Source: Patescibacteria group bacterium
Lineage (GTDB): Bacteria > Patescibacteriota > Patescibacteriia > Magasanikbacterales > JBBTQS01
DNA length: 64,000 nucleotides
NCBI GenBank assembly: GCA_038065555.1
Contig: JBBTQS010000001.1
Coordinates: 192,741 to 256,740 of the forward strand
Direction: 5' to 3'
Positions 4,903-63,892 of this stretch are shown here, piece by piece; positions within the stretch are counted from its first letter, which is position 1; each line of letters opens with the position of its first letter. The position numbers were made by a program, and so were the translations under genes. The notes under the pieces are model-generated. The model saw only the letters and a program-made list of their open reading frames with translations, did no database searches and was not told where the DNA came from.

Positions 4903-4986
4903 ACTTCCCCATCATAAACGAAAACACGCCGGGAAGCCAGCGTGTTTCGGTTTAGTTATTGGGGGCGAAATTGCCCCTGGAATCGC

Positions 4987-7074
4987 TCAGTGACAGGCGT
5001 CCCGCACGGTGATCTCACCGACGAAGTGGAACGTCTGTTGGAAGACAGGCGAAGTCGAGACCTTGGCGCCGTTGCGCTTGAGATTGATCACGACTGTGCC
5101 ACTCGTGCCTACAGCAAGTGGTGATTGCGTCCCACCGGACTGCTGCCGCGAGTATTTCTCGCTCGGCCCATCGAAGACATTGCTATCGATGACAGCGCTT
5201 CCTTTCTTCACCTCCATGGTTGGGAAGGCGTCGCCGACGATGTCGTAGTGATGCTGCAGCGCGAACTCCAGCACCTTTGGCACTCCGCTCGTATCGCCCA
5301 GAGCATCCAAGTCGATCGTGATGCTCGCAGAGTCGCTACTCAGGAGAATACCGATTTCCTTGTTGCACGTACTGCCAACTGCGCACCACGGGCCGACGTG
5401 AAATCCAGAGCCTGCTGTGAACCAAGGTTGGAAGTTCCCAGCATCTCCTGCTTTGCCAGCGCTTTCGCTGACAATGAACGCGGGGTAGCCTGAGTGTACG
5501 CATCCCACCGATGGCTCGCACGAGTCGAGTGTGCAGACATCGCTGTCCGAACAATCTGTCGGCGTCGGTGTGACGCATTCGCCAGCAGCGCAGCCTTCGT
5601 TCTGGGTGCACGGATCGATATCCGAGCAGTCCAGCGCTTTGCCCACGCAGCTTCCATTGAAGCATGTGTCAGAATGCGTGCACGGCTCACCGTCGTCGCA
5701 CTCTGCAATATCTCCCGAGATGCATATACCTTCGGTGACGCTACAGTGGTCTCCCACAGTGCAGACATCCCCATCGTCACACACGACGTCGAGATTCTTG
5801 CTGAAGCACATGTTCTGATCCGGTCCTGGCGTGAGCTCGCACCAATTCTGTGTGCAGGCGTTGCTGTCGTCACATTCTTCGTTTTGACGACAGCACGCGG
5901 GGACTTCTGGGAACGAGCAGAGCCCGCTCTGTGCAACGCACAGGTCATACGAGCACGGATTCCCGTCCTCGCAGTGAACCAGCGTCCCCAACACACAGAC
6001 GTTCGCGACGCATGTGACCGGCTTGGTGCACAGCGTAGCGTCCTCGAGATGCGCGCAGTCTGACGTTACCGTACACTGACACACCTGCGCGTCCACTGCT
6101 CCACTCAGACATACTCCCGCATCGCAGACATCAGCAACCGTGCAGAAGTCGCCATCTTCGCACGCCACTTCATCAGCGAGAACCACCGACTTGATGATGC
6201 ATTCCCCTGTTGTTGGGTCACACATCTCGGGAGCGCACGGATCACTCGTATCGCAGATAATGCCGAGGCATTTGTCCACGACAGGGACGTCGTTGTCGAT
6301 CGTGGTATCAGGCGGATCAACGATGTCGCCATCGATGCCGTCTGTTGTACCCACGTCTTGTTGTCCAACGTCGTCGATGCCATCTGTGGCATCAGCGAGA
6401 TCCGTCGAATCGGTAGTGCCTACGTCCTCGAGTACATCCTCCGGCGGATTCACGATCACATCGCTGGCGTCAGTGCCATCCACACCGTCTACGTCAGTCA
6501 GGACCGCATCACTGCTGTCCGTTCCATCGGTGTCGGGCGCGTCTACACTGTCGTCACCAACGCTGCCATCGGTGTCGGGGATGTCCGCTGGGTCTTCGAC
6601 ATCAGGCACGTCCTCGAATGAGTCCGCGTCATCAGTCTCAACATCATCGGAATCCACTTCGACACTGCCGTCAGTGTCTGCGTCGGGCGTCTCCACCTCT
6701 GGGGTGTCTTCGCCGTCAGCTGCCACATCGGCGTCGTCTGTCGAGTCTGCATCAGCGTCGGCTAGGACTTCTGTGTCCTTGCCGTCGACCGACACTTCCT
6801 CGCCCGCGACATCAGCGCTGTCAGCATCCTCGCTGTCTGCGACTTCTTCGCCCACGCCGTCGGATGCATCAATGTCTTCGTCGAGCGCGATCGCGTCAGC
6901 GTCGGCGCTCGAATCTGACGCGTGGATGTCCGTGCTGTCGCTGACACTGTCAGCTCCAGCATCGTCCGCAACGAGACCGTCGCCAGTCCCGAATGTGAGC
7001 TGCGCCGGATCCGACGCGGTGAAAGGATTGCATGCGGCCGTAGCCGCGAAAAGTAGTGCTACTGCGATCCGCAT
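4987..7074 (-). CDS. Secreted/lipoprotein with long acidic D/S/T/V-rich low-complexity region followed by about 9 cysteine-rich repeats (C-x-D-G-x-x-C-T-x-D-x-C-x4-6-C)
   Basis: ORF-track ORF trimmed to the internal ATG (MRIAVALLFAATAAC: signal peptide with lipobox-like TAAC) preceded by GGGAGGT SD. Residues about 40-270 are almost pure D/A/S/T/V/E. Then CEDGDFCTVADVCDAGVC, CEDGNPCSYDLC, CDDGDVCTVGDHC, CDDGEPCTHSDTC etc. C-terminal about 200 aa beta-rich domain. Confidence 0.7.
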   Translation of the reverse strand: MRIAVALLFAATAACNPFTASDPAQLTFGTGDGLVADDAGADSVSDSTDIHASDSSADADAIALDEDIDASDGVGEEVADSEDADSADVAGEEVSVDGKDTEVLADADADSTDDADVAADGEDTPEVETPDADTDGSVEVDSDDVETDDADSFEDVPDVEDPADIPDTDGSVGDDSVDAPDTDGTDSSDAVLTDVDGVDGTDASDVIVNPPEDVLEDVGTTDSTDLADATDGIDDVGQQDVGTTDGIDGDIVDPPDTTIDNDVPVVDKCLGIICDTSDPCAPEMCDPTTGECIIKSVVLADEVACEDGDFCTVADVCDAGVCLSGAVDAQVCQCTVTSDCAHLEDATLCTKPVTCVANVCVLGTLVHCEDGNPCSYDLCVAQSGLCSFPEVPACCRQNEECDDSNACTQNWCELTPGPDQNMCFSKNLDVVCDDGDVCTVGDHCSVTEGICISGDIAECDDGEPCTHSDTCFNGSCVGKALDCSDIDPCTQNEGCAAGECVTPTPTDCSDSDVCTLDSCEPSVGCVHSGYPAFIVSESAGKAGDAGNFQPWFTAGSGFHVGPWCAVGSTCNKEIGILLSSDSASITIDLDALGDTSGVPKVLEFALQHHYDIVGDAFPTMEVKKGSAVIDSNVFDGPSEKYSRQQSGGTQSPLAVGTSGTVVINLKRNGAKVSTSPVFQQTFHFVGEITVRDACH

Positions 7075-7124
7075 GAGTGACCTCCCAGTCGTGTGCGGTG
7101 AATGGTCTTGGAGCGCCAATCCTA

Positions 7125-7175
7125 AAAAAGAAAAGGCTGCCCTCCAAGTGAGGCAGCATACGCCTTTTCTTCGTT
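7125..7175 (-). terminator. Rho-independent terminator downstream of atpC (end of ATP synthase operon)
   Basis: Minus strand GCTGCC-N10-GGCAGC hairpin followed by CTTTTCTTTTTT; coordinates approximate. Confidence 0.5.
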
Positions 7176-7195
7176 TTTGTCAACTGGTAGCTAGA

Positions 7196-7618
7196 CTACG
7201 CGCGGCGACGGCGGGCAACGCGAATACGGACCAAGGATCGCTCGAGTGCTGCCTGAAGTGCAGCGAACTCAATATCATTAGCAAACTGACGCTTTGTGAT
7301 GAGTTCATGGGCACGCGCGCGAGCTGCTTCGGCACGCACAACGTCAATCTCGTCAGCACGCTCTGCAGCGTCTGCGAGAAGAATTACTTCATTGCCTCCA
7401 CGAACCTGGACGTACCCTGCAGCAGTTGCAACATGGTGCTCGCTTGCTCCTTCGCGAATGCGCACCTCACCTGCCTTCACAATACCTACAACAGGCATGT
7501 GGTGTGGCAAAATCGTGATCTCACCCATCTCCGTCATGAGCGATACAGAATCAACCGGTGCACGAAACACGACACGCTCTGGAGTGATGACTACAAATTG
7601 GAGTGTCGTGGTTGCCAT
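7196..7618 (-). CDS. atpC: F1 ATP synthase epsilon subunit
   Basis: 140 aa; MATTTLQFVVITPERVVF...ITILPHHMP typical epsilon N-terminal beta-sandwich plus C-terminal helical hairpin. Confidence 0.85.
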   Translation of the reverse strand: MATTTLQFVVITPERVVFRAPVDSVSLMTEMGEITILPHHMPVVGIVKAGEVRIREGASEHHVATAAGYVQVRGGNEVILLADAAERADEIDVVRAEAARARAHELITKRQFANDIEFAALQAALERSLVRIRVARRRRA

Positions 7619-7621
7619 ACG

Positions 7622-9846
<2,225 letters not shown>

Positions 9847-21878: not shown

Positions 21879-23027
21879 CTACAGGTCGATCTTGACCAGG
21901 TAGCCGCCGTTGTTGGAGTTGAAGACAGTGGAACTGAGGACGTTACCGTACGAATCGGTGAACCGCAGGGTCACGTCGTCGGCACCGGACGGCTTCTCCG
22001 GATACCAGACCGTTCGGTTACCCACGGCCACGACACTGCCGATCAGGAACCCATCATTCGTGCGAGCACCAGTCGGCACAGTGAGCTGAAACTTGATCAC
22101 GCGACGGTTCCAAGTGTTCTCAGAGTACCACGCCGACGCGTAGAAGTAGGTCCAGCTACGGTTGAAGCCGCTCTGTGCGCAGGTGGGTGTTGCGTAGTTG
22201 CTCATCCCGCCCCAGCTACAGAACTGCCCGTAGAAGTCAGCGCCCGAGAGATTGAACGAGGGTGCGGTGATCACCTCGACGTTCACGATCGCCACTGGGT
22301 TGCCGCTCCCTCCGCTTCCGCCGCCGTATCCTACCCAGACGCACTGATTGCTGCTGCACCCGTAGCCGCTGGCGCAATCACTGGAGGATCGGCAACAGTT
22401 GCTGATCTGCGTGTGCTGACACGAGCCGCCGGAGCTGCACCAGTCGTTGGTGCACACGTTGTTGTCCGCACACGACGCCGATGTGTTGCGGCAGTACGCT
22501 GCGCCGCCACTCACGTAGCACTCGTCCGTCGTACATCCATTGACATCGTTGCATGTGTACCGCGTTCCCTTGCAGACCCCGTTGCTCTGGTAGGTGTCGT
22601 TGTACGTGCACAGGTCCTGGTCGTTGCACGAGCCTGAGTACAGGTCCGTGCATGTGCCTGCGTAGCATCGCCGGTTCGCGCCGCACTGCGAGTCGTACAT
22701 GCAGCCGTCGTCAGACCCGGAGCACGTGAAGTCGATCGTGACGTTGCCCTTACAGCGGCCGTACGCGCACCACGACGACTCGAGGCTGACGCAGTTTGCC
22801 GAAAGGTCGGACTCATAGAGCCAGGCGTTGAACTCAGAGTACCCGCACTGACTACTCGAGTTGCAGGTCCCGAGCTCTGCCTCAATGACCCCCGTGCGCC
22901 CGCTCTCAGGAGCCGGGAGCGAAGCGATCTCCTGAGGAAGTGACGTGAACCCACCCGTCGCCATCGGATCTGTCCCGCATGCCACCATGGCTGCTGCGGC
23001 GCAGATCGCGAACATCAATTTTCTCAT
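21879..23027 (-). CDS. Secreted/lipoprotein cysteine-rich repeat protein with Gly-rich linker and C-terminal beta-rich domain
   Basis: Start at internal ATG MRKLMFAICAAAAMVACG (signal peptide/lipobox) preceded by AAGGAG SD. Mature protein has more than 45 Cys with repeats such as CNDVNGCTTDECY, CADNNVCTNDWC, then GYGGGSGGSGNP linker. Confidence 0.7.
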   Translation of the reverse strand: MRKLMFAICAAAAMVACGTDPMATGGFTSLPQEIASLPAPESGRTGVIEAELGTCNSSSQCGYSEFNAWLYESDLSANCVSLESSWCAYGRCKGNVTIDFTCSGSDDGCMYDSQCGANRRCYAGTCTDLYSGSCNDQDLCTYNDTYQSNGVCKGTRYTCNDVNGCTTDECYVSGGAAYCRNTSASCADNNVCTNDWCSSGGSCQHTQISNCCRSSSDCASGYGCSSNQCVWVGYGGGSGGSGNPVAIVNVEVITAPSFNLSGADFYGQFCSWGGMSNYATPTCAQSGFNRSWTYFYASAWYSENTWNRRVIKFQLTVPTGARTNDGFLIGSVVAVGNRTVWYPEKPSGADDVTLRFTDSYGNVLSSTVFNSNNGGYLVKIDL

Positions 23028-23776: not shown

Positions 23777-24373
23777 TTACTTACCGAGTGTTCCTGAACC
23801 TGGCTCCCATTCAATAGGGCAGAGTTCACCGGTTTGCAATGCTTCGAGAACGCGCAAGGTCTCCTTCACCGAGCGACCGACGTTGTTGTCAGAAACAACC
23901 ATGTACTTGAGCTCACCATCTGGATCAACAATGAATGTTCCGCGAAGTGCGATACCTTTGTCTTCCAGAAGCACTCCGTAGCTGCGTGCAACGCGATGCG
24001 CGGTGTCAGCAAGCACAGGGAACTTCACACCAGGGAGATCACGCTCGAACCATGCTTTGTGGCTGTGCTCAGAGTCTGTGGATGCACCAACGATCACTGC
24101 ATTCTTTGCATTGAACTCAGCTTCGTGTGATGCGAACCCCTTGATCTCTGTTGGACACACGAATGTGAAATCCAATGGGTAGAAGAAGAGCACTACCCAC
24201 TTGCCTGCATAATCTGCAAGGCGAACGCGCTTGAATTCACCTGCAACATACGCCATCTCATCGAAATGTGGCGCTGGGTGACCCACCTGCAACGGTGATC
24301 CTGCTCCGCCCATTTCTTCGAAAAGTCCTTCATCTTCACCGCATCCGCCGCCGTTTTCTTTACAACATGACAT
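23777..24373 (-). CDS. 2-Cys peroxiredoxin (AhpC/TSA family)
   Basis: FTFVCPTEI peroxidatic Cys motif and C-terminal resolving Cys (GELCPIEW); ORF has an unusual 20-aa Cys/Gly/acidic N-terminal extension (MSCCKENGGGCGEDEG...) and may really start at internal Met (about 24313). Confidence 0.8.
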   Translation of the reverse strand: MSCCKENGGGCGEDEGLFEEMGGAGSPLQVGHPAPHFDEMAYVAGEFKRVRLADYAGKWVVLFFYPLDFTFVCPTEIKGFASHEAEFNAKNAVIVGASTDSEHSHKAWFERDLPGVKFPVLADTAHRVARSYGVLLEDKGIALRGTFIVDPDGELKYMVVSDNNVGRSVKETLRVLEALQTGELCPIEWEPGSGTLGK

Positions 24374-24392
24374 AGCCTAAATCATTACAGAA

Positions 24393-25004
24393 TTACAATG
24401 TGCACTTGCGTGCCTTCTCATAGTACTCGTTCGCTACGCTCCAATCAAGGTTCTTGAAGAAATCATCAATGTACGCGCCACGATTCGCTCCATAATCCAT
24501 GAAATACGCATGCTCATAGACATCAAGGACGATGAGTGGAATACAGCCCCAGACACCACCCTGATTGTGCGCGTCTGCGGTATAGACCTTCACCGTCTGT
24601 GCGCGCATATCCCAGCACAGCACCGCCCAGCCACGCGCAGCCATGCCGCACGCCTTGAAATAGCCATAGAAATTCTCGAGTGATCCCATTTTTTCCACCA
24701 GCGCGTCAACGAGCGTCCCTGTTGGCTCCCCAGAACCACCAAGAACGGAGAAATACCATTCGTGGAGGTACACACCATTACGCGCAAATGTCTCGCCTTC
24801 CTTGAGTCCGCGAATGTGGCTGTAGCTCTGATTGGGCGCATCGAAGTTCGCCTGATTCATGCAGAACTCGTTGAGCTTCTGCGAAATCTCGTTGGCTTTC
24901 TTCACGTACCCTTGATAGAGCGTGTCTTGATGGATCTGAAGTGTCTTTTCGGAAATGCCTGTAAGAGGCTTTTCCCATGTGTATTTGCGGGGTTCGATGG
25001 CCAT
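24393..25004 (-). CDS. sodA: Fe/Mn superoxide dismutase
   Basis: Start at MAIEPRKYTWEKPL; metal ligands in HQDTLYQGY... and DVYEHAYF (D-x-W/Y-E-H-A-Y); ORF-track N-terminal extension overlaps gpsA so trimmed. Confidence 0.85.
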   Translation of the reverse strand: MAIEPRKYTWEKPLTGISEKTLQIHQDTLYQGYVKKANEISQKLNEFCMNQANFDAPNQSYSHIRGLKEGETFARNGVYLHEWYFSVLGGSGEPTGTLVDALVEKMGSLENFYGYFKACGMAARGWAVLCWDMRAQTVKVYTADAHNQGGVWGCIPLIVLDVYEHAYFMDYGANRGAYIDDFFKNLDWSVANEYYEKARKCTL

Positions 25005-25008
25005 AGTG

Positions 25009-25902
25009 TTATGCGAAAAACTGAGTGAAGAATGCTGCGGGAGACTGAGCGCCGCGTAGCACACCCACTATACCAGACAACAGTGGGTAGCGCGCAATCG
25101 CCTCGTCGCCCCCAAGAAGAACAACCAGGGACTGGTATGATGCTGCACCTTCAGCAGTCGCGAGCGCTTCTGGGGCCTGAACAAATTGCATCCCATAGGT
25201 GAAGTTGCGCGAATACGTGCCTGCAGACGTTGCTACAAAATCTCCAATGCCTGCAATGCCATACACCGTCTCACGTTTGCCACCAAGCGCCTCACACTGC
25301 GCCGCCATTTCGCCAATCGCAGTTGCAACACAGGTGCCGCGTGCGTTGTCGCCCAGCTCAAGCGCAACAAGCATACCGATCCCAATCGTGTACACATTCT
25401 TGAGTACACCACAGAGCACCACACCGCGCACATCATCTGTTGTGGTGGTGCGTAGTCCTGTTTGTGCAAAGAGTGCTTGTACGCGAGCGAGCGCTGCTGC
25501 ATCAGTGGACGCGAGCACTGCGCCTGCTGGTTTGCTCTCCATCAATTCTTCAGCAAGCATCGGTCCAGAGAGAAATACCACCGGCATTTGATCTCCGATA
25601 CTCTCTGCACAGATCACATCTGTTGTTGCGTGCGTGTCACGCTCAACGCCTTTTGCGATTGAGATGAAAATCGCGTGGGGCGGCATATGCGGAAGTGCAC
25701 GAGTAATCGCATCTCGCAGACACCATGATGGCACTGCTGCGACAATGAATTCTGCTTGTGCAAGTGCAGATTCGAGCGTGTGCTGCACAGGCATCTTGGC
25801 CGCATCAACGTCCCACAGCGTACACGTGTGTCCAACGCGAGTAAGTACGGTTGCAAGCGCCTGTCCGAACTCCCCTGCACCCAACATGGTAATACGAGCC
25901 AT
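25009..25902 (-). CDS. gpsA: NAD(P)H-dependent glycerol-3-phosphate dehydrogenase
   Basis: 297 aa; N-terminal Rossmann MARITMLGAGEFGQALA; GpsA-type catalytic domain (GVLKNVYTIGIGM, GLRTTTTDDVRGV). Confidence 0.75.
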   Translation of the reverse strand: MARITMLGAGEFGQALATVLTRVGHTCTLWDVDAAKMPVQHTLESALAQAEFIVAAVPSWCLRDAITRALPHMPPHAIFISIAKGVERDTHATTDVICAESIGDQMPVVFLSGPMLAEELMESKPAGAVLASTDAAALARVQALFAQTGLRTTTTDDVRGVVLCGVLKNVYTIGIGMLVALELGDNARGTCVATAIGEMAAQCEALGGKRETVYGIAGIGDFVATSAGTYSRNFTYGMQFVQAPEALATAEGAASYQSLVVLLGGDEAIARYPLLSGIVGVLRGAQSPAAFFTQFFA

Positions 25903-25986: not shown

Positions 25987-26346
25987 ATGAACTGTCCGCT
26001 ACTGATTGTACTCGTTGTCGCATCCTGCGGCTACGAGATGGCTGCCCCGACTGACATCAATTACGAGGTGCAAAATCCTGAAACAACCAATACGCACGTG
26101 TCCGAAGAGCCGCTCATTCCTACCGGACAGCTCCTTCTGCAGACACTGTGTGTGAGCGACAATCCCTGTGTAGTGGCAACGATCGACGCTGCGGCTGGAG
26201 TCTGCGAATTCCAGACCACTGATCTACAAGGCGAGGTGTTCTGTGACGACCACAACCCCTGTACTCGCGACGACATGTGCTACGAGGATTACTGTCTGGG
26301 TGAAGTGATCGAAGGGTGTGACCTCGATGATACCTATTACTACTAG
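25987..26346 (+). CDS. Small cysteine-rich lipoprotein carrying one or two copies of the same C-x-D-x-N-x-C-T-x-D-x-C repeat
   Basis: 119 aa; lipoprotein signal MNCPLLIVLVVASCG; CDDHNPCTRDDMCYEDYC repeat. Confidence 0.55.
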   Translation: MNCPLLIVLVVASCGYEMAAPTDINYEVQNPETTNTHVSEEPLIPTGQLLLQTLCVSDNPCVVATIDAAAGVCEFQTTDLQGEVFCDDHNPCTRDDMCYEDYCLGEVIEGCDLDDTYYY

Positions 26347-37035: not shown

Positions 37036-37336
37036 AGCACAATTATGGCAATGTTCCGACAGGATAATTTGATCATCTATTACTGTACCATTATTCTGTT
37101 TTGAAAACAGCAGACATCAACACATTATTTTGCTCGCCCAGCTGTCCACAGCAAACGTTTGACTTTGATATCATCCATGCTAAAGTCTACTTGTCGCTTC
37201 CGAAACTAGCGTAGGTGAGGTATACGCTAATAGGTCCGGAAGCGATTACTGAGTGGGCACTTCTCAGGATTCACCTCAGTCCTGAGCCTACTCGTCGAGC
37301 CTCGGCCACAAGCCTTGGCTCTTCTTTTTATTACAA

Positions 37337-37360
37337 TAGGAAAAGCACCAACGACGAATC
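37337..37360 (-). terminator. Rho-independent terminator of the small membrane-protein gene
   Basis: Perfect 10 bp hairpin GCACCAACGA-CGAAT-CGTTGGTGC followed on the minus strand by TTTTCCTATTGTAATAAAAA; coordinates approximate. Confidence 0.55.
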
Positions 37361-37391
37361 GTTGGTGCCTGTTGAGAGGATCTCTCTCCCG

Positions 37392-37703: not shown

Positions 37704-38005
37704 TTGCTATCTCCGCAAGATATTGTGTTATCACGATTCTCTCGTGGTGGACTACTGGATACTACTTCCAATAGTCGTCTAACCTAGCACAATTTGGTGT
37801 GAATGTCAAGAGTTGACCACTCAAATTTGCTTGCTCCACATAGTGGACGACATTAAAACTTATTTTATCACTTCAAATATCTACTTTCATGTCCCCAACC
37901 TTCAGAAAGCCAGCGAGTGATTCACAATTTAGAAAGTTTTGCTACGGTTTCCCATACTAAGTTACTATATTTCAGTGTGCACCGATAGCAGTTTTCATAT
38001 CAAAA

Positions 38006-38038
38006 TTAATGCCCTTAATTAAGTTTTAAGGGCATTAA
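38006..38038 (-). terminator. 13 bp perfect hairpin terminator whose upstream arm overlaps the last codons/stop of the island gene
   Basis: TTAATGCCCTTAA-N7-TTAAGGGCATTAA; on minus strand followed by TTTTGATATG; coordinates approximate. Confidence 0.5.
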
Positions 38039-39059
38039 AGATGTCCATAAATTTAACGTTACCGCTTTTTAGTAGTTCCTCCTGTTTCTCCACATCCTCT
38101 ACCTTAAAGAGATTTTCCATTGTAACCGTAACACTGAGATTCAACGGTGGACGATTTAACACCTCGTTTAACTTATTGATGAGGTGGCTACGAACCGCCG
38201 CTTCTACCTTTTTCTGTTTCAAAAAACGAAGTATTTGATAATACTCGGTAATGTACTTATTGGAACGTGAGCGCTGATTCCAACCAAAATCCTTCGTCAG
38301 TCTCGCAATTTCCAAAAACTTCGCCTTTTCAAACTCACTTTGGTCAAACCCAACATTTTCATTCACTTTCATTGCGTCCATCTGGAATTGCGGTATCAAC
38401 TCTTTACTAAGCTGATACAGACGTTTTAGAAGATAAAATGCCTTACGTCGGCCACCGTAGCCCTTCGGCATATCAATTCGGAGAATCTTTTCCGCAGGAA
38501 TTTTTATTATTTGAACGCGTGTATGTGACTCTCTAGCCTCCCACCAATGGACTAGCTGGTAGTAATTCTTGCCTAGGCGGTAAAGGTAGTAAGGTTGAAG
38601 ATGTTCAAACTCAAAACTCTCAATTTCACCCGCGTCATTTTTCTTATAAATTATCTCGTAAAATGCTACTCCGTCAGAAAAAAGAGAATGTGCGGCTAAC
38701 CTGACAAACTCACAGATTGCATCTTCAAGAAAATATGTGTGGTCTCTTTGAGAAATACCACTGGCAATCATTCGCTTTTTTGGAGTTGAAACCGCTGGCT
38801 CAATACGTGCTGGATACTTTTCTCTTTCACCGCGATAAATCATAAAAGGCATAATGCCTGTATACATATCCTCTACAAACATATGTGAATCCCCGTGATC
38901 GGGATATACTTTCCTGCGATACCGTCCTGTTATCCGAGCGGACAGTTGGTTACTGTCGCGTGGGCGTAAATACCACGGTTGCACCCAATGATTCAGAAAA
39001 AGCGGGTCTTTCAAAAAAGACCCGAGGAACTCTTTTCCTTTCTTAATATAGTTATTCAT
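38019..39059 (-). CDS. Island gene B: hypothetical soluble protein (about 346 aa from first ATG), no detectable family
   Basis: First ATG at 39059 (MNNYIKKGKEF) with AGGAAA SD; the ORF-track upstream extension begins with a TTG. Overlaps gene A stop by 8 nt (ATGAATAA). AT-rich codon usage distinct from flanking genes. Confidence 0.55.
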   Translation of the reverse strand: MNNYIKKGKEFLGSFLKDPLFLNHWVQPWYLRPRDSNQLSARITGRYRRKVYPDHGDSHMFVEDMYTGIMPFMIYRGEREKYPARIEPAVSTPKKRMIASGISQRDHTYFLEDAICEFVRLAAHSLFSDGVAFYEIIYKKNDAGEIESFEFEHLQPYYLYRLGKNYYQLVHWWEARESHTRVQIIKIPAEKILRIDMPKGYGGRRKAFYLLKRLYQLSKELIPQFQMDAMKVNENVGFDQSEFEKAKFLEIARLTKDFGWNQRSRSNKYITEYYQILRFLKQKKVEAAVRSHLINKLNEVLNRPPLNLSVTVTMENLFKVEDVEKQEELLKSGNVKFMDIFNALKT

Positions 39060-41568
39060 TGTCTTGTATTTCCTGATTAGGATTCTGTTGCTCCTCTTGG
39101 ATTGAGATCTTGAAATTATGTCTGTCTGGGAGCTCAATTCCTGCAGCAGATGGAAGGTTAGACAGGTAAGTAGCGAAGAAAATGTCCCGTGCGGAAGCCA
39201 TCAATCTCAAACCACCCAACCTTTCAAGTACCCTTACGATTGGGCTTGTATGGGTTGGCTGTCTACGACCATTTACAGTGTCGTAGCTCCTGTCATCAGG
39301 GAATACTGGTATACCTTGCTCGCGTAGTTCGTGTTCAAAGTTGATTTGCCAATTAGTTCGCAGTGTCGCTTGAGGCATTATGGTTAGCAGGCTATCTCGG
39401 TAAGCACTTACCCCCGCAATAAATTCTATGACTTTCTTGGCGTCAACAGCACCAAAATACTTGTTCCATAAATCTTCAAAAACACTCCAAATCTCTGGCT
39501 TCTGATAGAGCTCTGCATATAGCTTTGCGTATCCGCTGATTTCAAAAAGATTTTCAAGGGGTTCGCTTGCAAACACTATTTTGCTATCAAGCTGACTCCA
39601 ATCTTTTACTTTTTCACGTAGTCTTTCGTAAGCGGTAAGAGATGCATCAAATACGGCTGGCAAGATTTTCTTGAGTCTTTCAGGGTCTTTTTCTTCGCAA
39701 GCCTCATAGCAGGCTTCAACTCCTTCGGAAAGAGCCTGTCCGAAATAGTCTGGCAAACCATCACCTGTTGCAAGAGATTTGAGTTGAGGGAGCAATTGAA
39801 TCATCCTGTCGGTCACTTCCTTTTCGCGGTCTAGAGCTGTTTGCTTCTCCTTCTCAAAATCAAAGTCTGTCCAAGGCAAGTCTCCCAACAAGCGACGAGA
39901 GTTGGTGCATTCAACGTGTTTATTCATCTCAAAAACAAGTCTGCGGCACTTGGCAGAAAACTCCTTCCATTTCTGGATAAGGTGAACAGCCAAAGGCAAT
40001 TGTTGTGAGGCAAGTAAGGCATCAAGGGCTGACTGAAAATGTTCGGTATGCAACGACTTAATAAAATTGAAATAGCTATGCAATGAGAAGACATATTGCT
40101 GGAAGCAAAACGTATCTATATACCAATCTTCGGTTACGAGTTCTCCTTCAATGATTTTTTCATTCTCCAAGTCATTTTGAAGAGACTCCAAACGTGGGAG
40201 CATTGCTCCTGGCAACCCCGTGAGATAAATATGTTTTTTACCTGACAGCCACTTTATATCCGCTATGCGTTTTGCTATCGTTTCGCAAGAGTTTGCAGCA
40301 AGGTATTTTGTTAAACCTAGCAATGCTGCGATAGCGAGTCTGCTGTGCGCGTCCACAAAAGCAAGTTGTTCTTTGATTACCGGTTGCTGAACATTCGTTG
40401 CTTGTATTGCAAATAAGGAGTCCCTGATAGATTTTGTTTTTTTGAAAAGAAGCTCTGCACTTTTAACATCAAGATCTTGCGCGTACACATCTGCAATCTC
40501 AACGAATATATCTAAGGCGCGTGCACTGGAAATAATCCTTGTGCCTTCAGAAAAAGATTTAAATACCTCTCCCGCAATGCCCAAGACTTCATCCTCGTAC
40601 CAGGTGTAATTCTTTACATTTTTTGGCTGCAATGTTGTTCCAGTACTTAGCGCGATTGCAATTTCTGAAGAATTGGCAAGACCCCAATCTTGATACTCGT
40701 TTTTAGTTTCAAACCAGTAACTGTTTGTTGGGGTTTTGCTTTTAAAGCCTGCGTACGAGACAAGAATTCCACAGATATAGCCTATCGTTGTAACCAGTTG
40801 GTCGTCAGAGATTTTCATCTCGTCCTTCCCAAATCGCAGGAGGTTTTTGATTAAAGAAAATTTTGATGCGACCAGCCCTCTGTGATGATTTTGTATGGCT
40901 GGATTAGCCCACTGAAACCCTGGAGGTGCGATGCTTTTCATTGAAAAAAGGATGTCTCGCGTAATCCACGTTAGAGCGGACTGCGGCTCCAAGGAGTAAA
41001 AAACGTTCGTCCCTACCTGCCAAAATCTGATGACGATGTACGCAACCAATAGCGAGAGGAAGGCTAGACCTGCTGGATGAATTGTTTGGTCAAAGGATTT
41101 AAAAACGATGTAAAAGACACTCACTATACCTGTAATAGCTATTGTTCTTACGTACTGTCGTCCGCGTGGCTCTTTCAAGAAAAACTGCTTCACATTTTGA
41201 GGTGCACGCAAGAGATAACTGCTAGCAATACCAGATATTGCAGTGAAATACAGACCGAGGAAAACACCAGAGATACTGGCAACAACAGAAAGAAAAGTAT
41301 CAACAGCTTCTTTCTGATAGCGGAGATTTAAAGGGTAGTAAGCACTAAGCAGCTCTAAAATGAAAATTATAAATACGGAGTATGTTACTGCCCCGACAAA
41401 TGATTTTAGCGTCGGAAAGAGAATGTCTTTATCGATTTTGAATTGGTTTTTTGTGTAGCTACCACGATACATGCCTTTCCAAAAATAAAAGACTGGCTTA
41501 TCAGTAAGCCACTTTTTTGTAAGCCAGAAACCTTTCTTTCTGTATAGTTTGTTTCTAAAAGAAGTCAT
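39052..41568 (-). CDS. Island gene A: large membrane protein, 4-5 N-terminal TM helices followed by about 600-aa predicted alpha-helical soluble region; no detectable family
   Basis: 838 aa; TM helices at about 55-78, 95-120, 140-160, 170-190, 255-272; no nucleotide-binding or nuclease motifs seen; AT-rich composition. Confidence 0.6.
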   Translation of the reverse strand: MTSFRNKLYRKKGFWLTKKWLTDKPVFYFWKGMYRGSYTKNQFKIDKDILFPTLKSFVGAVTYSVFIIFILELLSAYYPLNLRYQKEAVDTFLSVVASISGVFLGLYFTAISGIASSYLLRAPQNVKQFFLKEPRGRQYVRTIAITGIVSVFYIVFKSFDQTIHPAGLAFLSLLVAYIVIRFWQVGTNVFYSLEPQSALTWITRDILFSMKSIAPPGFQWANPAIQNHHRGLVASKFSLIKNLLRFGKDEMKISDDQLVTTIGYICGILVSYAGFKSKTPTNSYWFETKNEYQDWGLANSSEIAIALSTGTTLQPKNVKNYTWYEDEVLGIAGEVFKSFSEGTRIISSARALDIFVEIADVYAQDLDVKSAELLFKKTKSIRDSLFAIQATNVQQPVIKEQLAFVDAHSRLAIAALLGLTKYLAANSCETIAKRIADIKWLSGKKHIYLTGLPGAMLPRLESLQNDLENEKIIEGELVTEDWYIDTFCFQQYVFSLHSYFNFIKSLHTEHFQSALDALLASQQLPLAVHLIQKWKEFSAKCRRLVFEMNKHVECTNSRRLLGDLPWTDFDFEKEKQTALDREKEVTDRMIQLLPQLKSLATGDGLPDYFGQALSEGVEACYEACEEKDPERLKKILPAVFDASLTAYERLREKVKDWSQLDSKIVFASEPLENLFEISGYAKLYAELYQKPEIWSVFEDLWNKYFGAVDAKKVIEFIAGVSAYRDSLLTIMPQATLRTNWQINFEHELREQGIPVFPDDRSYDTVNGRRQPTHTSPIVRVLERLGGLRLMASARDIFFATYLSNLPSAAGIELPDRHNFKISIQEEQQNPNQEIQDNE

Positions 41569-41630
41569 TGCTTATTTTGGTATTTCTTCAAAAAGGCATG
41601 GTTTCGTCCAAACCTCTGAAAAAGGCTCTC

Positions 41631-41658: not shown

Positions 41659-41672
41659 TTCTCGTCCTACTG

Positions 41673-41746
41673 GGCTCCGAGGGCGGGGCTCGAACCCGCG
41701 ACCAATTGGTTAACAGCCAACTGCTCTACCACTGAGCTACCTCGGA
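41673..41746 (-). tRNA. tRNA-Asn (anticodon GTT)
   Basis: Minus strand TCCGAGG-TA-GCTC-AGTGGTA-GAGC-A-GTTGG-CTGTTAA-CCAAT-TGGTC-GCGGG-TTCGAGC-CCCGC-CCTCGGA-G; cloverleaf with 7 bp acceptor, G73 discriminator; only CC of CCA encoded; coordinates approximate. Confidence 0.8.
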
Positions 41747-47111: not shown

Positions 47112-47504
47112 CTACAACCCAATTTTGTCACGAAGTGTACGTGCAGGCTGCGTGTGCGTCGATGGGGCTTCTGCGGTCGTAGAAATATGCAACGATGCCT
47201 TTGTCGGCGTAACAACTTCCGCAAGGATACGATCTCGCTCTGCGTCAAGAAGTGGTCCAACGTATTCGCCACTGTGTGCCGCACTTCCCTCGTACGAGAC
47301 ATGCTTCTGATCAATATGCATATCAATGGACAACTGCCCATCATTCGTCTCTACATACGCATGGAACCGAGGATAGAATCCTGTGCCCAGACGTCGGATA
47401 TAGCTGACCTTCCCAGTGTTCGGGTCAACGAACTCGTGATACCCGACGCGCGTGAGGAGCTGCTTACTCGTGAACCGAACTTCTGCTGGAATGGTGAACT
47501 GCAT
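47112..47504 (-). CDS. Hypothetical protein
   Basis: About 130 aa; start uncertain (overlaps VKOR gene end). Confidence 0.3.
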   Translation of the reverse strand: MQFTIPAEVRFTSKQLLTRVGYHEFVDPNTGKVSYIRRLGTGFYPRFHAYVETNDGQLSIDMHIDQKHVSYEGSAAHSGEYVGPLLDAERDRILAEVVTPTKASLHISTTAEAPSTHTQPARTLRDKIGL

Positions 47505-47952
47505 AGAGCGTAGCGATACCGATGCCAAGCATCGAGAATTGAATAAATGCGGATAACATACAATAGGTGCACACAGCCTGAATCACCACGAGCATCAAAT
47601 ACACCAGATATACTGAGGCAGCAGCACCCAAGAACGTCGAACAGGCCATGAGTATAGTCCAAATCCTATTCTCCCATTCACGCGCCACGAACCAGCCGAT
47701 GATGAGCACGAGATACCAACACGCACCAATGAGTGCGATAGGAATCCCCGCGATCTCTGCGTACGCACTGCGTGTAACCACATCACACCCCTGTCCAATT
47801 CCACACGGAACCACGGTGCCCGAAATATACTTGGCCGCAAGATAGGACGCATCGGCCAATCCAACAGCAGCAAGGGCGACAGCGATGGTGCTGAGCTGCC
47901 TAGTTCGACTGCTGCGCAAGGAGACTGTCGATGGTTGCTCGGAGTGTTGCAT
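47464..47952 (-). CDS. Vitamin K epoxide reductase (VKOR) family membrane protein
   Basis: 162 aa; 4-5 TM; loop Cys pair in VVPCGIGQGCD and active-site CTYC (CXXC) in last TM. Confidence 0.7.
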   Translation of the reverse strand: MQHSEQPSTVSLRSSRTRQLSTIAVALAAVGLADASYLAAKYISGTVVPCGIGQGCDVVTRSAYAEIAGIPIALIGACWYLVLIIGWFVAREWENRIWTILMACSTFLGAAASVYLVYLMLVVIQAVCTYCMLSAFIQFSMLGIGIATLYAVHHSSRSSVHE

Positions 47953-48619
47953 AGTTGCTAGACAATTGTGCTACTTCACCATTGATGAAGAATGTCGGTG
48001 TACCTGTCACTCCTGCGCGTCTGCTCAGAGACATGTCACGCGTCACGCGCGAAGTGATTTCGTTAGACAACACATCTCTGCGAAACTGCTCTTCATTGAT
48101 CCCCAACTCACGAGCGAATGATGCGAATCGATTTGTCGCTTCACTCCCAGAGAGTTGCGTCCAACTTCCTTGTGTGGTGAAGAGTTTGTCCTGCATCTCC
48201 CAGAACTTGCCCTGCGTGTGTGCTGCCTCAGAAGCACGCGCGGCGAGATCTGCCAACGGATGCATATCATAGAGCGGATGATGGCGATACACGAATCGAA
48301 CCTTGTCCGCGTGCGTCGCCTGCAACTGCTTGATCGCCGGATGATACGAAGCACATGCAGGACACTGGAAATCACTATACTCAACGATCGTGATCTTCGC
48401 GTCTGCTGGTCCCCATGTATGATCCACAGACTCGACCGAGCTTGTGTCACGCTTGCCTGTCTCGCCAGCAGAATTACGACTGCCCAACCACACCATGAGC
48501 CCAATAACGACCACAACTCCAGCAAGTAACCACGCACCATGCACCAACGATGACGATTTTTGCATAACCGAAAAAAATACTACGCCTCTAGCGTAGCATT
48601 CTTTGCCTCTTATTGCCAC
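47900..48619 (-). CDS. DsbA-family thiol:disulfide oxidoreductase, membrane-anchored
   Basis: Signal-anchor TM then thioredoxin fold with CPAC active site (YSDFQCPACASYH); overlaps VKOR gene by about 50 nt. Confidence 0.8.
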   Translation of the reverse strand: MAIRGKECYARGVVFFSVMQKSSSLVHGAWLLAGVVVVIGLMVWLGSRNSAGETGKRDTSSVESVDHTWGPADAKITIVEYSDFQCPACASYHPAIKQLQATHADKVRFVYRHHPLYDMHPLADLAARASEAAHTQGKFWEMQDKLFTTQGSWTQLSGSEATNRFASFARELGINEEQFRRDVLSNEITSRVTRDMSLSRRAGVTGTPTFFINGEVAQLSSNYATLRATIDSLLAQQSN

Positions 48620-54339: not shown

Positions 54340-54426
54340 GCGGAGGATGAGGGATTCGAACCCTCGATGACCTTTCGGTCAAACCAACTTTCCAGGCTGG
54401 CGCCATAGACCACTAGGCGAATCCTC
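54340..54426 (-). tRNA. tRNA-Ser (anticodon GGA), type II with long variable arm
   Basis: Minus strand GGAGGAT-TC-GCC-TAGTGGTCTAT-GGC-G-CCAGC-CTGGAAA-GTTGG-TTTGACCGAAAGGTCATC-GAGGG-TTCGAAT-CCCTC-ATCCTCC-G; CCA not encoded; coordinates approximate. Confidence 0.8.
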
Positions 54427-54434
54427 CAGCGTTG

Positions 54435-55217
54435 CTACTTTTTGCGAACTTGGGTTCCTTTCTTATACCAGAAGACCCCGACCAACACAAGAGCTGCGAT
54501 CGTTCCATATTGTGCAGGCGTGAGCCCTGCATACCGCACATCAGCTCCAGCAATATCAGTCGCCCGCAGGAAGTCCAAGAAGAACCTCGCTACCGCGTAC
54601 ACTGCGACCACAACCAGCATATGCCACCCACGCAGCCATCCCTGTGCGCGCAGGAACACGACGATCACTGCGATGCCCGCAGCAACAATCGCATCATAGA
54701 GTCCTAGGTCGTGCCTGCCCCACCCAGCGTCACCCCAATCCCCAGGTTCGCGCACGGCAAGTGCAAAATGCGTCAGCGTTCCTGGATGATCATGGATGAG
54801 AAAACATCCAATGCGTCCAACCATCCAACCCAGTGGCAACGCCAGGGCTCCTGCTTCGGCAAATGCATGCACATCCACGCGCGCTCTGCGCAATCTCCAT
54901 ATCCCGTAGCCCGCAGCTACAACAAATCCACCAAGGGACGACATGCCACCATGCCACACACGCAACACTTCAAGTGGATCAACGAGATACTGCGCAGGCT
55001 CATAGAACAATACATGTCCTAATCGTGCACCGACAAACCCTGCGATAATGATCGCAATTGCATGATCCACCCATGATGACGCATCTTTGCCCAGACGCTT
55101 TGCATCCCACCGTAATACGAGAAGTGACACAACGACACCCAGTGCAACGAGCAGTCCCCACACATGCAACGTCAGTGGCCCCAACGCAATCGTGTGCCAC
55201 GCAAAGTACGGAATCAT
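54435..55217 (-). CDS. lgt: Prolipoprotein diacylglyceryl transferase
   Basis: 260 aa; Lgt signature GRIGCFLIHDHPG and conserved His/Arg/Tyr positions, 7 TM. Confidence 0.85.
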   Translation of the reverse strand: MIPYFAWHTIALGPLTLHVWGLLVALGVVVSLLVLRWDAKRLGKDASSWVDHAIAIIIAGFVGARLGHVLFYEPAQYLVDPLEVLRVWHGGMSSLGGFVVAAGYGIWRLRRARVDVHAFAEAGALALPLGWMVGRIGCFLIHDHPGTLTHFALAVREPGDWGDAGWGRHDLGLYDAIVAAGIAVIVVFLRAQGWLRGWHMLVVVAVYAVARFFLDFLRATDIAGADVRYAGLTPAQYGTIAALVLVGVFWYKKGTQVRKK

Positions 55218-60446: not shown

Positions 60447-60914
60447 TCACTGTACCGTGCCTGCTGGCGTAATGGTGACCACACCAGAGATCCCATTGAC
60501 CTCACCTTCGAGCTCTGCACGCACCGTATACGACGTGTATGGCTCCTTGGATTCATACTGATACTCACGCGTGCCTGTTGGCGCCATTGGAATGCGCATC
60601 TTGAGATCTTGATTAGTACACTGTGTCGCCTCCTTTGCAAATCCATCTTCGCCATCGTCACAAATATAGAGTACTTCACCAGAACCGATCGTAATCGGCG
60701 CATCGGCGTGTGGATATTCCTTCTTCTTATTGAAGTACAACTCCAGGCCCGCGTGCACTACCTGCAAATCTGCAAGTCGCGCCTTGTCGCGAGATGTTTC
60801 GCGCGCCATTCCGAGTGCAACCACTGCCAGAGTGCTCAGCACGCCGATAATTGCCACAACCACGAGCAGTTCAATCAATGTAAACCCTTGTTGATTTCGC
60901 ATACGCATATCCAT
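60447..60914 (-). CDS. Type IV pilin / pseudopilin with prepilin N-terminal methylation motif
   Basis: GFTLIELLVVVAIIGVL class III signal peptide; C-terminal Cys pair region. Confidence 0.75.
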   Translation of the reverse strand: MDMRMRNQQGFTLIELLVVVAIIGVLSTLAVVALGMARETSRDKARLADLQVVHAGLELYFNKKKEYPHADAPITIGSGEVLYICDDGEDGFAKEATQCTNQDLKMRIPMAPTGTREYQYESKEPYTSYTVRAELEGEVNGISGVVTITPAGTVQ

Positions 60915-61321: not shown

Positions 61322-62422
61322 TTACAGCGCAAGCCGCAGCGCAAGTCCAGTTGCAACACTCATACGCGGACCAAAAGAGTCGAGCACTGGCTTGAGCGCA
61401 GACGGCGTGAGCACACGCGCCCACGGGTCCCCAATTGACGTCTTAATCGAGAAATGATCTTCCAACATCTCACTGAGCTGCGCCACACCACATGATCCAC
61501 CCGTGAGAATAATACGTTCTGGCTTGGCATTCTCGCGTTGTACTTGTTCGGAGAAAAGCAAGAATCCATACTGCATTTCTTTCACAATCGGCTGAACCGT
61601 TCGCTCGAGCAGTTCGCGCATCACGCGCTGTGTCTCAGGCGACGACGAATGACTCATATCTTTCTTGACCTGCTCTGCGTCTTCTTGACTGAGCGAGAGC
61701 ATATCCTGAATCACTGTTGTGAACGTGAGTCCACCGATCTCAATACTGCGTTGTGTACGTGGCACTCCGCGCTCCACCATGAAGAAATTTGTTCGCTTCG
61801 ATCCAATATCCACAATCATTGTTGTCGCAGGGTCAGTCCCAACAAGCGATCGAATGAGACCAAACGCCTCAGTCTCGAGACTCTCCAGCGCAATATTCGC
61901 TTGATAAAAAATCTTGCTATAGCGCTCAACAATCGACTTGAGTGTTGCAATCACAAGCACTTCACGAGATTTGGATTTCTTGCCCGGCGTTCCCTCGGCT
62001 GTCATATCTGCAATGCGCTCATCCATGAGACGCGTATCGAGCACAATATCCTTCGGATCGTATTGTAATAATTTGGTTGCCTGTGCTTGCGCTGCTGCAC
62101 GCATGGATTCTGGATCAGACTCGGCCACACGCACGACAACACTGAACACCTGTGACACAGGGAGACTCGCACTTGCGATTGTTGCACGCGCGCCGCACGC
62201 GTCATACACCTTGCGCAGACGCTGCGCATAGAGCGCAACCGAACGCGCTTCTTCCTCTGCAGTTCCTGCACGCTGATGCACGGCAGCATCAAAGACGTCG
62301 CCAATACCGTACGTAGCCAGTCGTGGTCGCGTCCCAGATTTGATGAGCTCAACCATCTTGACGCCGCGAGCGCCAATATCCACACCGAGCACGTTGGTAT
62401 TTGTTTTGGCAAAAAGTCCCAT
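61322..62422 (-). CDS. pilM: Type IV pilus assembly ATPase-fold protein PilM (actin-like)
   Basis: ORF-track 560-aa ORF trimmed to ATG MGLFAKTNTNVLGVDIGARGVKMVEL because the upstream part is antisense to cysS; actin/FtsA-like fold motifs (VDIGSKRTNF, ILTGGS). Confidence 0.75.
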   Translation of the reverse strand: MGLFAKTNTNVLGVDIGARGVKMVELIKSGTRPRLATYGIGDVFDAAVHQRAGTAEEEARSVALYAQRLRKVYDACGARATIASASLPVSQVFSVVVRVAESDPESMRAAAQAQATKLLQYDPKDIVLDTRLMDERIADMTAEGTPGKKSKSREVLVIATLKSIVERYSKIFYQANIALESLETEAFGLIRSLVGTDPATTMIVDIGSKRTNFFMVERGVPRTQRSIEIGGLTFTTVIQDMLSLSQEDAEQVKKDMSHSSSPETQRVMRELLERTVQPIVKEMQYGFLLFSEQVQRENAKPERIILTGGSCGVAQLSEMLEDHFSIKTSIGDPWARVLTPSALKPVLDSFGPRMSVATGLALRLAL

Positions 62423-62431
62423 ACGCGAAAG

Positions 62432-62443
62432 AGTATACCACAC
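62432..62443 (-). promoter_or_regulatory. Extended -10 promoter element GTGTGGTATACT (copy 2), 9 nt upstream of the pilM ATG
   Basis: Exact repeat of the 12-mer at 31775..31786; implies a near-leaderless pilM transcript; coordinates approximate. Confidence 0.45.
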
Positions 62444-62470
62444 TTTGCGCCTGCGCCGCGAGATGCTAGG

Positions 62471-63892
62471 ATGGCGCATATGCCCATCAGACTTTGGAAC
62501 ACCCTCACACACAAGAAGCAGCTCTTCCGTCCACAGCGCTCCGGCGTTGCTACGCTCTACACCTGCGGTCCGACGGTGTACAACTACATGCACATCGGCA
62601 ATTTGCGCACGTTCGTGTTCGAAGATCTGCTCAAGCGCACACTTCTTGCGAGCGATCTTCGCGTGCGCCACATCATGAATATCACCGATGTTGGACATCT
62701 CACCAACGACTCCGATGATGGTGATGACAAGATGGAACGCGCAGCACTCACCACTGGCAAAAGCATCTGGGAACTCGCCGCATTCTACACCGAGGCATTT
62801 CAGCAAGACGTTGCCGCGCTCAACATATTGCCGCCAATGCGTTACACGCTGGCAACAGACCACATCAAGGAACAGATTGCGCTGGTCAAGAAGCTCGAAA
62901 AGAAGGGACACACCTATCGCACGAGCGACGGTATTTATTTCGACACTGCGACATGGAAGAAGTATGGCGTGCTCATGAGCAAGAAGCACCTCGCAGGACT
63001 CCACAAAGGAGCACGTGTGAGTGCAAGCGAAGAGAAACGCAACGCGACTGATTTCGCACTCTGGAAATTTTCACCATCCGATGGTGGCGCCAAGCGTCAA
63101 ATGGAGTGGGACTCGCCATGGGGCGTCGGATTCCCTGGTTGGCACATTGAGTGTTCTGCTATGGCGATGAAATATCTCGGCACAACACTTGATATCCACT
63201 GTGGCGGCGTGGATCACATCACCATCCATCACACCAACGAGATTGCGCAAAGCGAAGCAGTCACAGGCAAGCCGTTCGCTCGGTTTTGGATGCACGGCGA
63301 ATTCCTCCAAATCAATAGTGCGAAGATGGCAAAGTCGCAAGGCAACTTCTTGCGCATCGCCGACGTACGCGATCACGGGTTGGACCCGATTGACTATCGC
63401 TACTTCTTGTTGCAGACCCACTATCGCAAGCAACTACAATTCTCTTGGGAAGCAGTCGAAGCTGCAGCAACAGGACTACGCAATCTCGTCGAACGACTTG
63501 CACAGGCTCCAGCGAGCAACCGCGCAGAGAGCAAACTCTCCAAGGCGATCACCGCAGCAATGCAAGATGATCTCAACGCACCCAAGGCCATCGCACTGCT
63601 CTGGAAAGCGATTGGCAAGAAGGGCGCTGTTGATGCGCGTATTGCAGAGGCTATTTTTGCCGCTGACGACGCATACTTCGGTCTCAACTTGCGCACGCGC
63701 GTTGCAACACATCTGAGCAAGCCTACAAGCACACAAGAACTCCCCGCAGATATCCAAGGCATCCTCGACGCACGTGCGCTCGCACGATCGAGCCGCGACT
63801 TCGCAGCATCAGACCGCCTACGCGACGAGCTCCTCGCTCGCGGATATGTGGTCAAGGACACTCCTACTGGCCAAGAAGTGAGCACACGCTAG
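62471..63892 (+). CDS. cysS: Cysteinyl-tRNA synthetase
   Basis: Start at MAHMPIRLWNT (second ATG 62480 also possible); class I HIGH (MHIGNLRT) and KMSKS (KMAKSQGN) motifs, zinc-binding Cys. Confidence 0.9.
   Translation: MAHMPIRLWNTLTHKKQLFRPQRSGVATLYTCGPTVYNYMHIGNLRTFVFEDLLKRTLLASDLRVRHIMNITDVGHLTNDSDDGDDKMERAALTTGKSIWELAAFYTEAFQQDVAALNILPPMRYTLATDHIKEQIALVKKLEKKGHTYRTSDGIYFDTATWKKYGVLMSKKHLAGLHKGARVSASEEKRNATDFALWKFSPSDGGAKRQMEWDSPWGVGFPGWHIECSAMAMKYLGTTLDIHCGGVDHITIHHTNEIAQSEAVTGKPFARFWMHGEFLQINSAKMAKSQGNFLRIADVRDHGLDPIDYRYFLLQTHYRKQLQFSWEAVEAAATGLRNLVERLAQAPASNRAESKLSKAITAAMQDDLNAPKAIALLWKAIGKKGAVDARIAEAIFAADDAYFGLNLRTRVATHLSKPTSTQELPADIQGILDARALARSSRDFAASDRLRDELLARGYVVKDTPTGQEVSTR

Follow-up and report, generated by a model that had tools for sequence, protein, structure and literature searches.

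Locus organization and gene product

The DNA analysed here (the window) is a 64,000-nt stretch of contig JBBTQS010000001.1 (GenBank assembly GCA_038065555.1, positions 192,741 to 256,740 of the forward strand) from a Patescibacteria group bacterium, and its minus-strand gene at 4987..7074 encodes a 695-aa product that reads as a surface lipoprotein with four successive parts, namely a lipobox signal peptide, a polyanionic tether, a Cys-rich stalk and an orphan C-terminal head domain (Table 1). The analysis was confined to the 64,000 nt of the window, with related contigs read to flanks of at most 10 kb. The mechanically called open reading frame (ORF) is longer (4987..7119, minus strand) and opens at TTG 7119, but ATG 7074 is the likely start, because a GGGAGG Shine-Dalgarno sequence (7086..7081, minus strand) lies 6 nt 5' of it, because TTG 7119 sits right behind the T-run of the atpC terminator hairpin without a Shine-Dalgarno sequence, and because all orthologues begin at the Met equivalent to ATG 7074. 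Since terminator-like hairpins flank it on both sides, the gene looks like a separate transcription unit between the ATP synthase operon and a gene for a UvrD/PD-(D/E)XK helicase-nuclease. An antisense, Ser-rich ORF of 548 aa (6140..7786, plus strand) crosses the target gene, the intergenic terminator and atpC and runs into atpD, and stop-free antisense runs of 295-461 aa recur in the orthologues. Where GAY/GNN codons abound on the sense strand, long runs of this kind are expected and are no evidence of coding, so the antisense ORF, which the first-pass annotation of the window had called spurious, is best explained as a non-coding by-product of composition.

Besides a near-identical copy (98%), four distinct and more distant orthologue clusters were recovered (77, 76 and 61% identity, plus the locus L003); one near-identical protein, MEK7647598.1, is annotated as 'Patescibacteria group bacterium'. 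The order atpG-atpD-atpC, lipoprotein gene, UvrD-like helicase is kept in three loci (L001, L002 and L003), and because of this shared position the gene is taken as vertically inherited in a narrow lineage. The contig of L003 (CAZVGV010000008.1, 5725-12660) comes from a metagenome-assembled genome labelled 'uncultured Gammaproteobacteria bacterium', yet its AtpD is 95% identical to that of the window and its atp-lipoprotein-helicase synteny is the same, so that either a labelling error or mis-binning of the contig is probable.

Predicted lipidation signal and acidic tether

As judged by sequence reading, the N-terminus MRIAVALLFAATAAC carries Arg2, an uncharged h-region and the motif A-T-A-A-C ending at Cys15, and thereby satisfies the PROSITE PS51257 rule ({DERK}(6)-[LIVMFWSTAG](2)-[LIVMFYSTAGCQ]-[AGS]-C, with the Cys at positions 15-35 and a Lys or Arg within the first seven residues), which makes Cys15 the predicted lipidated residue. 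The same regular expression matched every orthologue, and their lipobox has the form AAAAC, more canonical than that of the target. The gene for Lgt, the prolipoprotein diacylglyceryl transferase, is also present in the window and supports the lipoprotein prediction for this protein and for two smaller Cys-repeat proteins described below.

Residues 16-268 constitute a 253-aa acidic segment. Over residues 16-266 it contains 28% Asp, 6% Glu, a single Lys/Arg and just 8% bulky hydrophobics, giving a net charge of about -86 (-134 for the whole mature protein), and in a charge-hydropathy plot it falls on the side of disorder (<H> 0.435, boundary 0.535). The maximum Asp plus Glu content in a 60-aa stretch is 47%, whereas no other ORF of the window (>=100 aa) reaches 30%. 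A recent tandem duplication was considered as the origin of this region and rejected, as Tandem Repeats Finder detected only one small 15-nt array (2.3 copies); because no real DNA tandem repeat is present, the low complexity is compositional.

Among the orthologues, tether length (223-251 aa) and net charge (-68 to -86) are always kept despite many indels, at 46-58% identity to the target and with 38-56 gap columns. The proportion of nonsynonymous differences (pN, 0.26-0.34) is well below that of synonymous differences (pS, about 0.7), which indicates a translated and constrained, yet fast-evolving, segment. Preserved length, composition and charge, combined with an indel-rich sequence and a pN well below pS, are what a functional disordered spacer should show. 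To place the tether within its wider family, we compared the linkers of 59 homologues, including four orthologues. Lipobox-bearing homologues with the PF00526 repeat (see below) from outside the orthologue group have linkers of 4-87 aa with net charges of 0 to -31, and in roughly half of the full-length homologues sampled a lipobox is followed by a mildly acidic linker within this length range. A linker after the lipobox is therefore a family trait that has been expanded here, and the long polyanionic form is, on this comparison, the lineage-specific novelty.

Cysteine-rich stalk

Within the 257 aa of residues 269-525 there are 41 Cys, arranged as nine modules of 23-38 aa with four to six Cys each, two of them atypical six-Cys variants. 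The spacing C-x5-C-x4,5-C-x4,6-C occurred nine times, compared with a mean of 0.62 in 5000 composition-matched shuffles (0/5000 reached nine), and the strict pattern C-x-[DN]-x3-C-[TS]..[DENQ]-x-C occurred four times (0.01 expected), so that the repeat lies far beyond chance. The stalk aligned with its orthologues at 72-81% identity with zero gaps and conserved Cys positions (pN 0.11-0.16, pS about 0.7), and AlphaFold2 (AF2) modelled it as short beta-hairpins with a predicted local distance difference test score (pLDDT) of about 77. In one orthologue cluster (P0002), Phe replaces an otherwise conserved Cys (Cys340 of the target, in the atypical third module), leaving an odd Cys count; because the near-identical L003 copy retains this Cys, the Phe may be a sequencing or strain variant.

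[quoted passage not shown] A phmmer search of 5.8 billion proteins returned 334 matches at E <= 1e-3, and among the best 120 of these 334 nearly all were annotated with PF00526, the best non-orthologue reaching E = 5.5e-45. Among the matches listed, E-values to PF00526-annotated bacterial proteins ranged from 5e-45 to 1e-13, and the named homologues were mostly from Myxococcota, with others from Uhrbacteria, Binatia and further groups. The consensus of 60 homologues resolved two alternating module subtypes, C-x-D-G-x-x-C-T-x-x-D-x-C-x-x-G-x-C and C-D-D-x-N-P-C-T-x-D-x-C-x-P-x-x-G-C.

The first-pass annotation had likened the repeats to DUF4215 and to the myxobacterial type, and this part of it did not stand. 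A hidden Markov model scan with the NCBIfam library, which includes TIGR02232, matched 0 families at E <= 1, PF13948 was not matched in Pfam at E <= 1, and membership of TIGR02232/DUF4215 was therefore rejected, with PF00526 as the only match; by sequence comparison the repeats are clearly a divergent Dicty_CTDC type. No match of the repeat region to PDB chains was found by sequence at E <= 1, and a Foldseek search with the whole ectodomain gave for the repeat part just a poor match to Elapor1, which was disregarded (root-mean-square deviation 30-40 Å). More than 100 homologues with PF00526 stalks carry varied C-terminal domains, such as fibrinogen-C, LTD, Laminin_G_3, FG-GAP/VCBS, cohesin and amidase_2, and the joining of homologous stalks to many different heads fits a generic role of the stalk in presenting a head. 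The repeat also figures in a published list of variable surface-display modules in bacterial teneurin-like proteins (bioRxiv 10.1101/2025.11.11.687626).

C-terminal head domain

The C-terminal 170 residues (526-695), with conserved Cys564, Cys570 and Cys694, matched no Pfam family, the carbohydrate-binding module (CBM) families included, at E <= 1. In a HMMER scan of 1.84 billion representative proteins, the domain was matched by two proteins only: its own orthologue cluster (P0004, E = 6.5e-33) and a PKD-domain protein (P0127) with a weak, multi-repeat match (E = 3.3e-4) whose matching units are themselves unannotated. In a genome scan for the domain, L003 was the sole true orthologue locus, and three further matches were confined to the repeats. 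The head would thus belong to a very rare CBM-like domain family that is annotated in no database. Against the orthologues it showed 48-75% identity (pN 0.11-0.17, pS about 0.7) and was gapless except for 15 gap columns in the most distant one.

AF2 predicted an all-beta fold for the head (predicted template modelling score (pTM) 0.72; pLDDT 72, about 80 over the domain proper), and a separate model of the 431-aa ectodomain gave the same strand pattern. Foldseek searches of the PDB returned CBM51, 61, 8, 22, 36 and 6, the 'cleaved adhesin' domains of gingipains, domain III of Cry toxins and the domains by which iota/CDT binary toxins bind their receptors (E 2e-4 to 5e-3, target-normalised TM-score <= 0.54), and a search of viral models (BFVD) returned tail-fibre, tailspike and minor-tail proteins (target-normalised TM-score <= 0.60). 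The head is accordingly predicted, from fold-level resemblance, to be a jelly-roll binding module, with no membership by sequence in any Pfam CBM family. One segment, KRNGAKVSTSPVF (aa 666-678, 13 residues; window 4990-5079 region), is invariant in all orthologues, down to 48% domain identity, and is located in a predicted loop between the last strands, which makes this loop a candidate functional or ligand-binding site.

Taken with the preceding sections, these data bear out most of the architecture sketched in the first-pass annotation: the signal peptide with a lipobox-like Cys agrees with the PS51257 pattern at Cys15, the acidic low-complexity region put at about 230 aa is slightly longer (253 aa), the count of about nine tandem Cys repeats withstood the shuffle test, and the C-terminal beta-rich domain holds as a prediction in the all-beta AF2 model.

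Other genes in the window

Features of the target gene and of functionally related genes are collected in Table 1. A six-frame scan of the window detected three ORFs with this repeat type, the target included, and no others. The 382-aa paralogue-like protein reaches 27.4 bits against PF00526 and passes the gathering cutoff, and the 119-aa protein matches the target with E = 4e-6 in BLASTP and 2e-4 in phmmer; both had been pointed out in the first-pass annotation. Their linkers after the lipobox are about 40 aa long and not notably acidic. A head domain shared by the target and the 382-aa protein was considered and rejected (hhalign probability 0.2%). The proposal of an expanded family of disulfide-rich surface proteins rests on three repeat genes within 64 kb and is overstated, as only the repeat type is common to them: the C-terminal domains are unrelated and the paralogues have no acidic region. 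The DsbA-VKOR pair suggested to oxidise such proteins was found as described, with both genes intact and the CPAC and CTYC motifs in place.

Table 1. Features of the target gene and related features of the window
Feature	Coordinates	Strand	Basis or remarks
Signal peptide with lipobox, aa 1-15 (MRIAVALLFAATAA/C15)	7030..7074	-	PROSITE PS51257 fit
Polyanionic tether, predicted disordered, aa 16-268	6271..7029	-	composition, charge-hydropathy
Cys-rich stalk, nine tandem Dicty_CTDC-type modules, aa 269-525	5500..6270	-	modules tabulated and tested by shuffling
Orphan C-terminal beta-sandwich domain, aa 526-695, plus stop	4987..5499	-	predicted fold
Terminator-like hairpin	7136..7157	-	ends atpC, upstream of target gene
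Terminator-like hairpin	4921..4948	-	12-bp stem and T-run, beyond target stop codon
Paralogue-like 382-aa lipoprotein	21879..23027	-	lipobox AMVAC, Dicty_CTDC repeats, GGGSGGSG linker, unrelated C-terminal domain
119-aa predicted lipoprotein, one or two repeat modules	25987..26346	+	lipobox VVASC
VKOR homologue, DsbB-equivalent re-oxidiser	47464..47952	-	PF07884, CTYC at 128-131, loop pair Cys50/Cys56
DsbA-like thiol oxidase, membrane-anchored N-terminally	47900..48619	-	PF13462 and PF01323, CPAC at 86-89
Lgt, prolipoprotein diacylglyceryl transferase	54435..55217	-	PF01790, 130 bits

Genes resembling peroxiredoxin and Fe/Mn superoxide dismutase adjoin at 23777-25064 (minus strand), between the two smaller Cys-repeat genes (read from the translations, without hidden Markov models), and hint at an oxygen-exposed lifestyle that would be consistent with extracellular disulfide chemistry. 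A tRNA gene (54341..54427) adjoins the Lgt gene. Type IV pilus-related genes occupy 60447-63004 (minus strand), comprising one for a pilin-like protein (60447..60914), which has a methylation motif at its N-terminus, and one for a PilM-like protein of 560 aa with an N-terminal extension of roughly 200 aa (61322..63004, minus strand); pili are another candidate attachment device in bacteria of the candidate phyla radiation (CPR). A Gmad2/Germane-domain protein and a vWA-TerF-like protein (34701-35573 and 52279-53025, both minus strand) are possibly envelope-associated. A low-GC stretch at 37100-41750 (0.42-0.43, compared with about 0.52 elsewhere) adjoins a tRNA gene (41675..41746, minus strand) and may be an island inserted at the tRNA; it contains ORFs of 372 aa (38019..39137, minus strand) and 838 aa (39052..41568, minus strand, apparently with several membrane helices), and PADLOC and Pfam searches of the ORFs in the 38-42 kb interval gave no match.

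Proposed function and alternative explanations

CPR bacteria (Patescibacteria) are thought to live attached to other cells, and few of their attachment molecules are known; the bacterium considered here is tiny and probably symbiotic. We propose, at a probability only slightly above even (about 55%), that the target is an adhesin or ligand receptor displayed at the cell surface on a lipid anchor, in which anchor, tether, stalk and head follow one another. According to this proposal, the Sec signal peptide would be cleaved at the lipobox and Lgt would diacylglyceryl-modify Cys15, so that the protein is held on the outer leaflet of the cytoplasmic membrane, as the motif and the presence of Lgt suggest. 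The tether would remain unfolded and extended by charge repulsion, serving as a flexible spacer that takes the folded part past the cell wall and the surface layer (S-layer), with a contour length of about 90 nm and a realistic reach of tens of nanometres; as a side effect it might form a cation-binding, non-sticky polyanion brush. DsbA-VKOR would oxidise the nine modules into a rigid, elongated, protease-resistant stalk with up to about 20 disulfides (up to 44 Cys in the whole protein), as repeat homology and the machinery observed in the window imply, and the jelly-roll head, whose fold is predicted, may bind a ligand. The likeliest ligand would be a glycan or another surface polymer, belonging either to a partner or host cell or to the bacterium's own envelope or matrix.

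Several points weigh against this assignment. The target lipobox has Thr at -3 instead of the classic Leu/Val/Ile, and LspA was not found among the genes scanned in the 64-kb window. The tether holds short conserved islands (GEEV, VLADAD, DDADS-EDVPDV and PPDTT) that hint at specific interactions beyond those of a passive spacer, and the length that it would need to cross the envelope is a guess. The AF2 model of the head rests on a five-sequence alignment, its fold matches are weak (Foldseek E 5e-5 to 5e-3, TM-scores 0.35-0.6), and the jelly-roll fold is very common and is found in non-binding roles too.

The acidic region could itself be the functional part, a cation-binding or mineral-interacting polyanion analogous, as a protein, to teichoic acid, which at the cell surface would act as a buffer for Ca2+/Mg2+/metals or govern how minerals nucleate, while the Cys-rich and beta domains act as mere scaffold. 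This explanation, which is compatible with the adhesin model, draws on the negative charge that every orthologue conserves in the tether and that is so high in the mature protein, and on a tether 3 to at least 10 times longer than in other lipobox-bearing PF00526 homologues, as if the lineage had been selected for more acid and not just for a linker. We nevertheless consider it unlikely, since stalk and head, at pN 0.11-0.17, change less rapidly than the tether (0.26-0.34) and include the invariant 13-residue loop, which ill fits mere scaffold, and since Pfam and NCBIfam detected no Ca-binding motif (EF-hand, RTX or Dx[DN]xDG repeat). The acidic tail may, as suggested earlier, bind cations or host surfaces, but an envelope-spanning tether is favoured; lipobox-bearing PF00526 homologues also have a linker, albeit much shorter, at this place.

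Somewhat less probable again is a structural role in the matrix or envelope, as for the Cys-repeat matrix proteins EcmA/EcmB of Dictyostelium, in which the head would bind the wall or exopolysaccharide of the cell itself and cross-link the envelope or biofilm matrix. A CBM-like head could bind a self polysaccharide, and the gene has housekeeping neighbours whose synteny is conserved, unlike a gene of a variable island. Against this role, one lipid anchor and a long flexible tether would serve to hold a head at some distance better than they would serve cross-linking, and there is one copy per genome region with no sign of self-assembly domains; sequence data do not tell self ligands from non-self ones.

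The adhesin model also has a bolder and decidedly speculative extension, to which we assign a still lower weight: the narrow Patescibacteria lineage might have evolved a dedicated device for recognising a host or partner, with the head, as a domain family not described before, serving as a specific receptor for a glycan on the host-cell surface and the exceptionally long tether as an electrostatically extended 'fishing line' of tunable reach that doubles as a protein substitute for teichoic-acid-like polyanions. If true, it would give a workable approach to the question of how an uncultured episymbiont locates its host and stays attached to it. Least probable of all, and very unlikely in our judgement, is a mis-assigned start or topology, with a soluble protein secreted through signal peptidase I or a start at TTG 7119 and no lipid anchor: the Thr at -3 and a frame open up to TTG 7119 would allow it, but the TTG lies within the atpC terminator T-run without a Shine-Dalgarno sequence, the GGGAGG before ATG 7074 is optimally spaced, the orthologues share the Met start and the AAAAC lipobox, Lgt is present and both paralogues have lipoboxes.

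Because it combines a textbook anchor-tether-stalk-head architecture with Lgt, DsbA and VKOR in the same window, the target is a reasonable candidate for expression and binding studies of CPR attachment, a lead and not a discovery. Current understanding is not overturned, and a specialist would not be surprised.

Comparison with known systems

The closest kin of the repeats are those of Dictyostelium EcmA/EcmB, of spore-coat proteins and of uncharacterised bacterial PF00526 proteins, mostly from Myxococcota. Like the target, PF00526 proteins have tandem four-Cys modules of ~24-27 aa with the signature C-x-D-G-x-x-C-T-x-D-x-C-x-x-G-x-C, a signal peptide and an extracellular location; the target differs from them in its sub-cutoff score, its two six-Cys modules, its 253-aa tether and its orphan head. 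The Myxococcus cysteine-rich repeat (TIGR02232/DUF4215) resembles it in having secreted, Cys-rich tandem units with D-G and in being common in Myxococcota, but is a separate repeat family.

For the tether, a parallel is offered by E. coli, in which a disordered linker is present at the N-terminus of about half of the outer-membrane lipoproteins (bioRxiv 10.1101/2021.01.05.425367). As in the target, an unstructured stretch lies there between the lipidated Cys and the folded domain. At 253 aa the tether of the target is far longer and extremely acidic, and it belongs to a CPR bacterium for which no Lol-type sorting can be assumed; among polyanionic tethers of lipoproteins it is an extreme case.

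The head, like CBM51/61/6/22/36 and the gingipain, binary-toxin and phage tail-fibre domains, is predicted to be an all-beta sandwich of ~150 aa (Foldseek probability 0.99-1.0), and it sits at the end of a stalk, as binding modules typically do. Sequence identity to these CBMs and related domains is 8-16%, and among them no counterpart was identified for the three Cys or the KRNGAKVSTSPVF loop.

A role in attachment has been proposed for large Cys-rich proteins that CPR bacteria place outside the cell (PMC4736985). Compared by their description, those of Ca. Peribacter riflensis share with the target a CPR origin, a signal peptide, a disulfide-forming enzyme in the genome and the proposed role, whereas they average about 1655 aa, are encoded in a 14-gene cluster, were reported to be weakly similar to Myxococcus repeats and are not described as having an acidic tether or a CBM-like head (PMC4736985). 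Collectively, the target is a bacterial Dicty_CTDC-repeat surface protein, a known kind whose Dictyostelium-type Cys repeat is documented as a widespread bacterial stalk module, and it is set apart by an unusually long polyaspartate-rich tether and an orphan CBM-like head in a CPR lineage.

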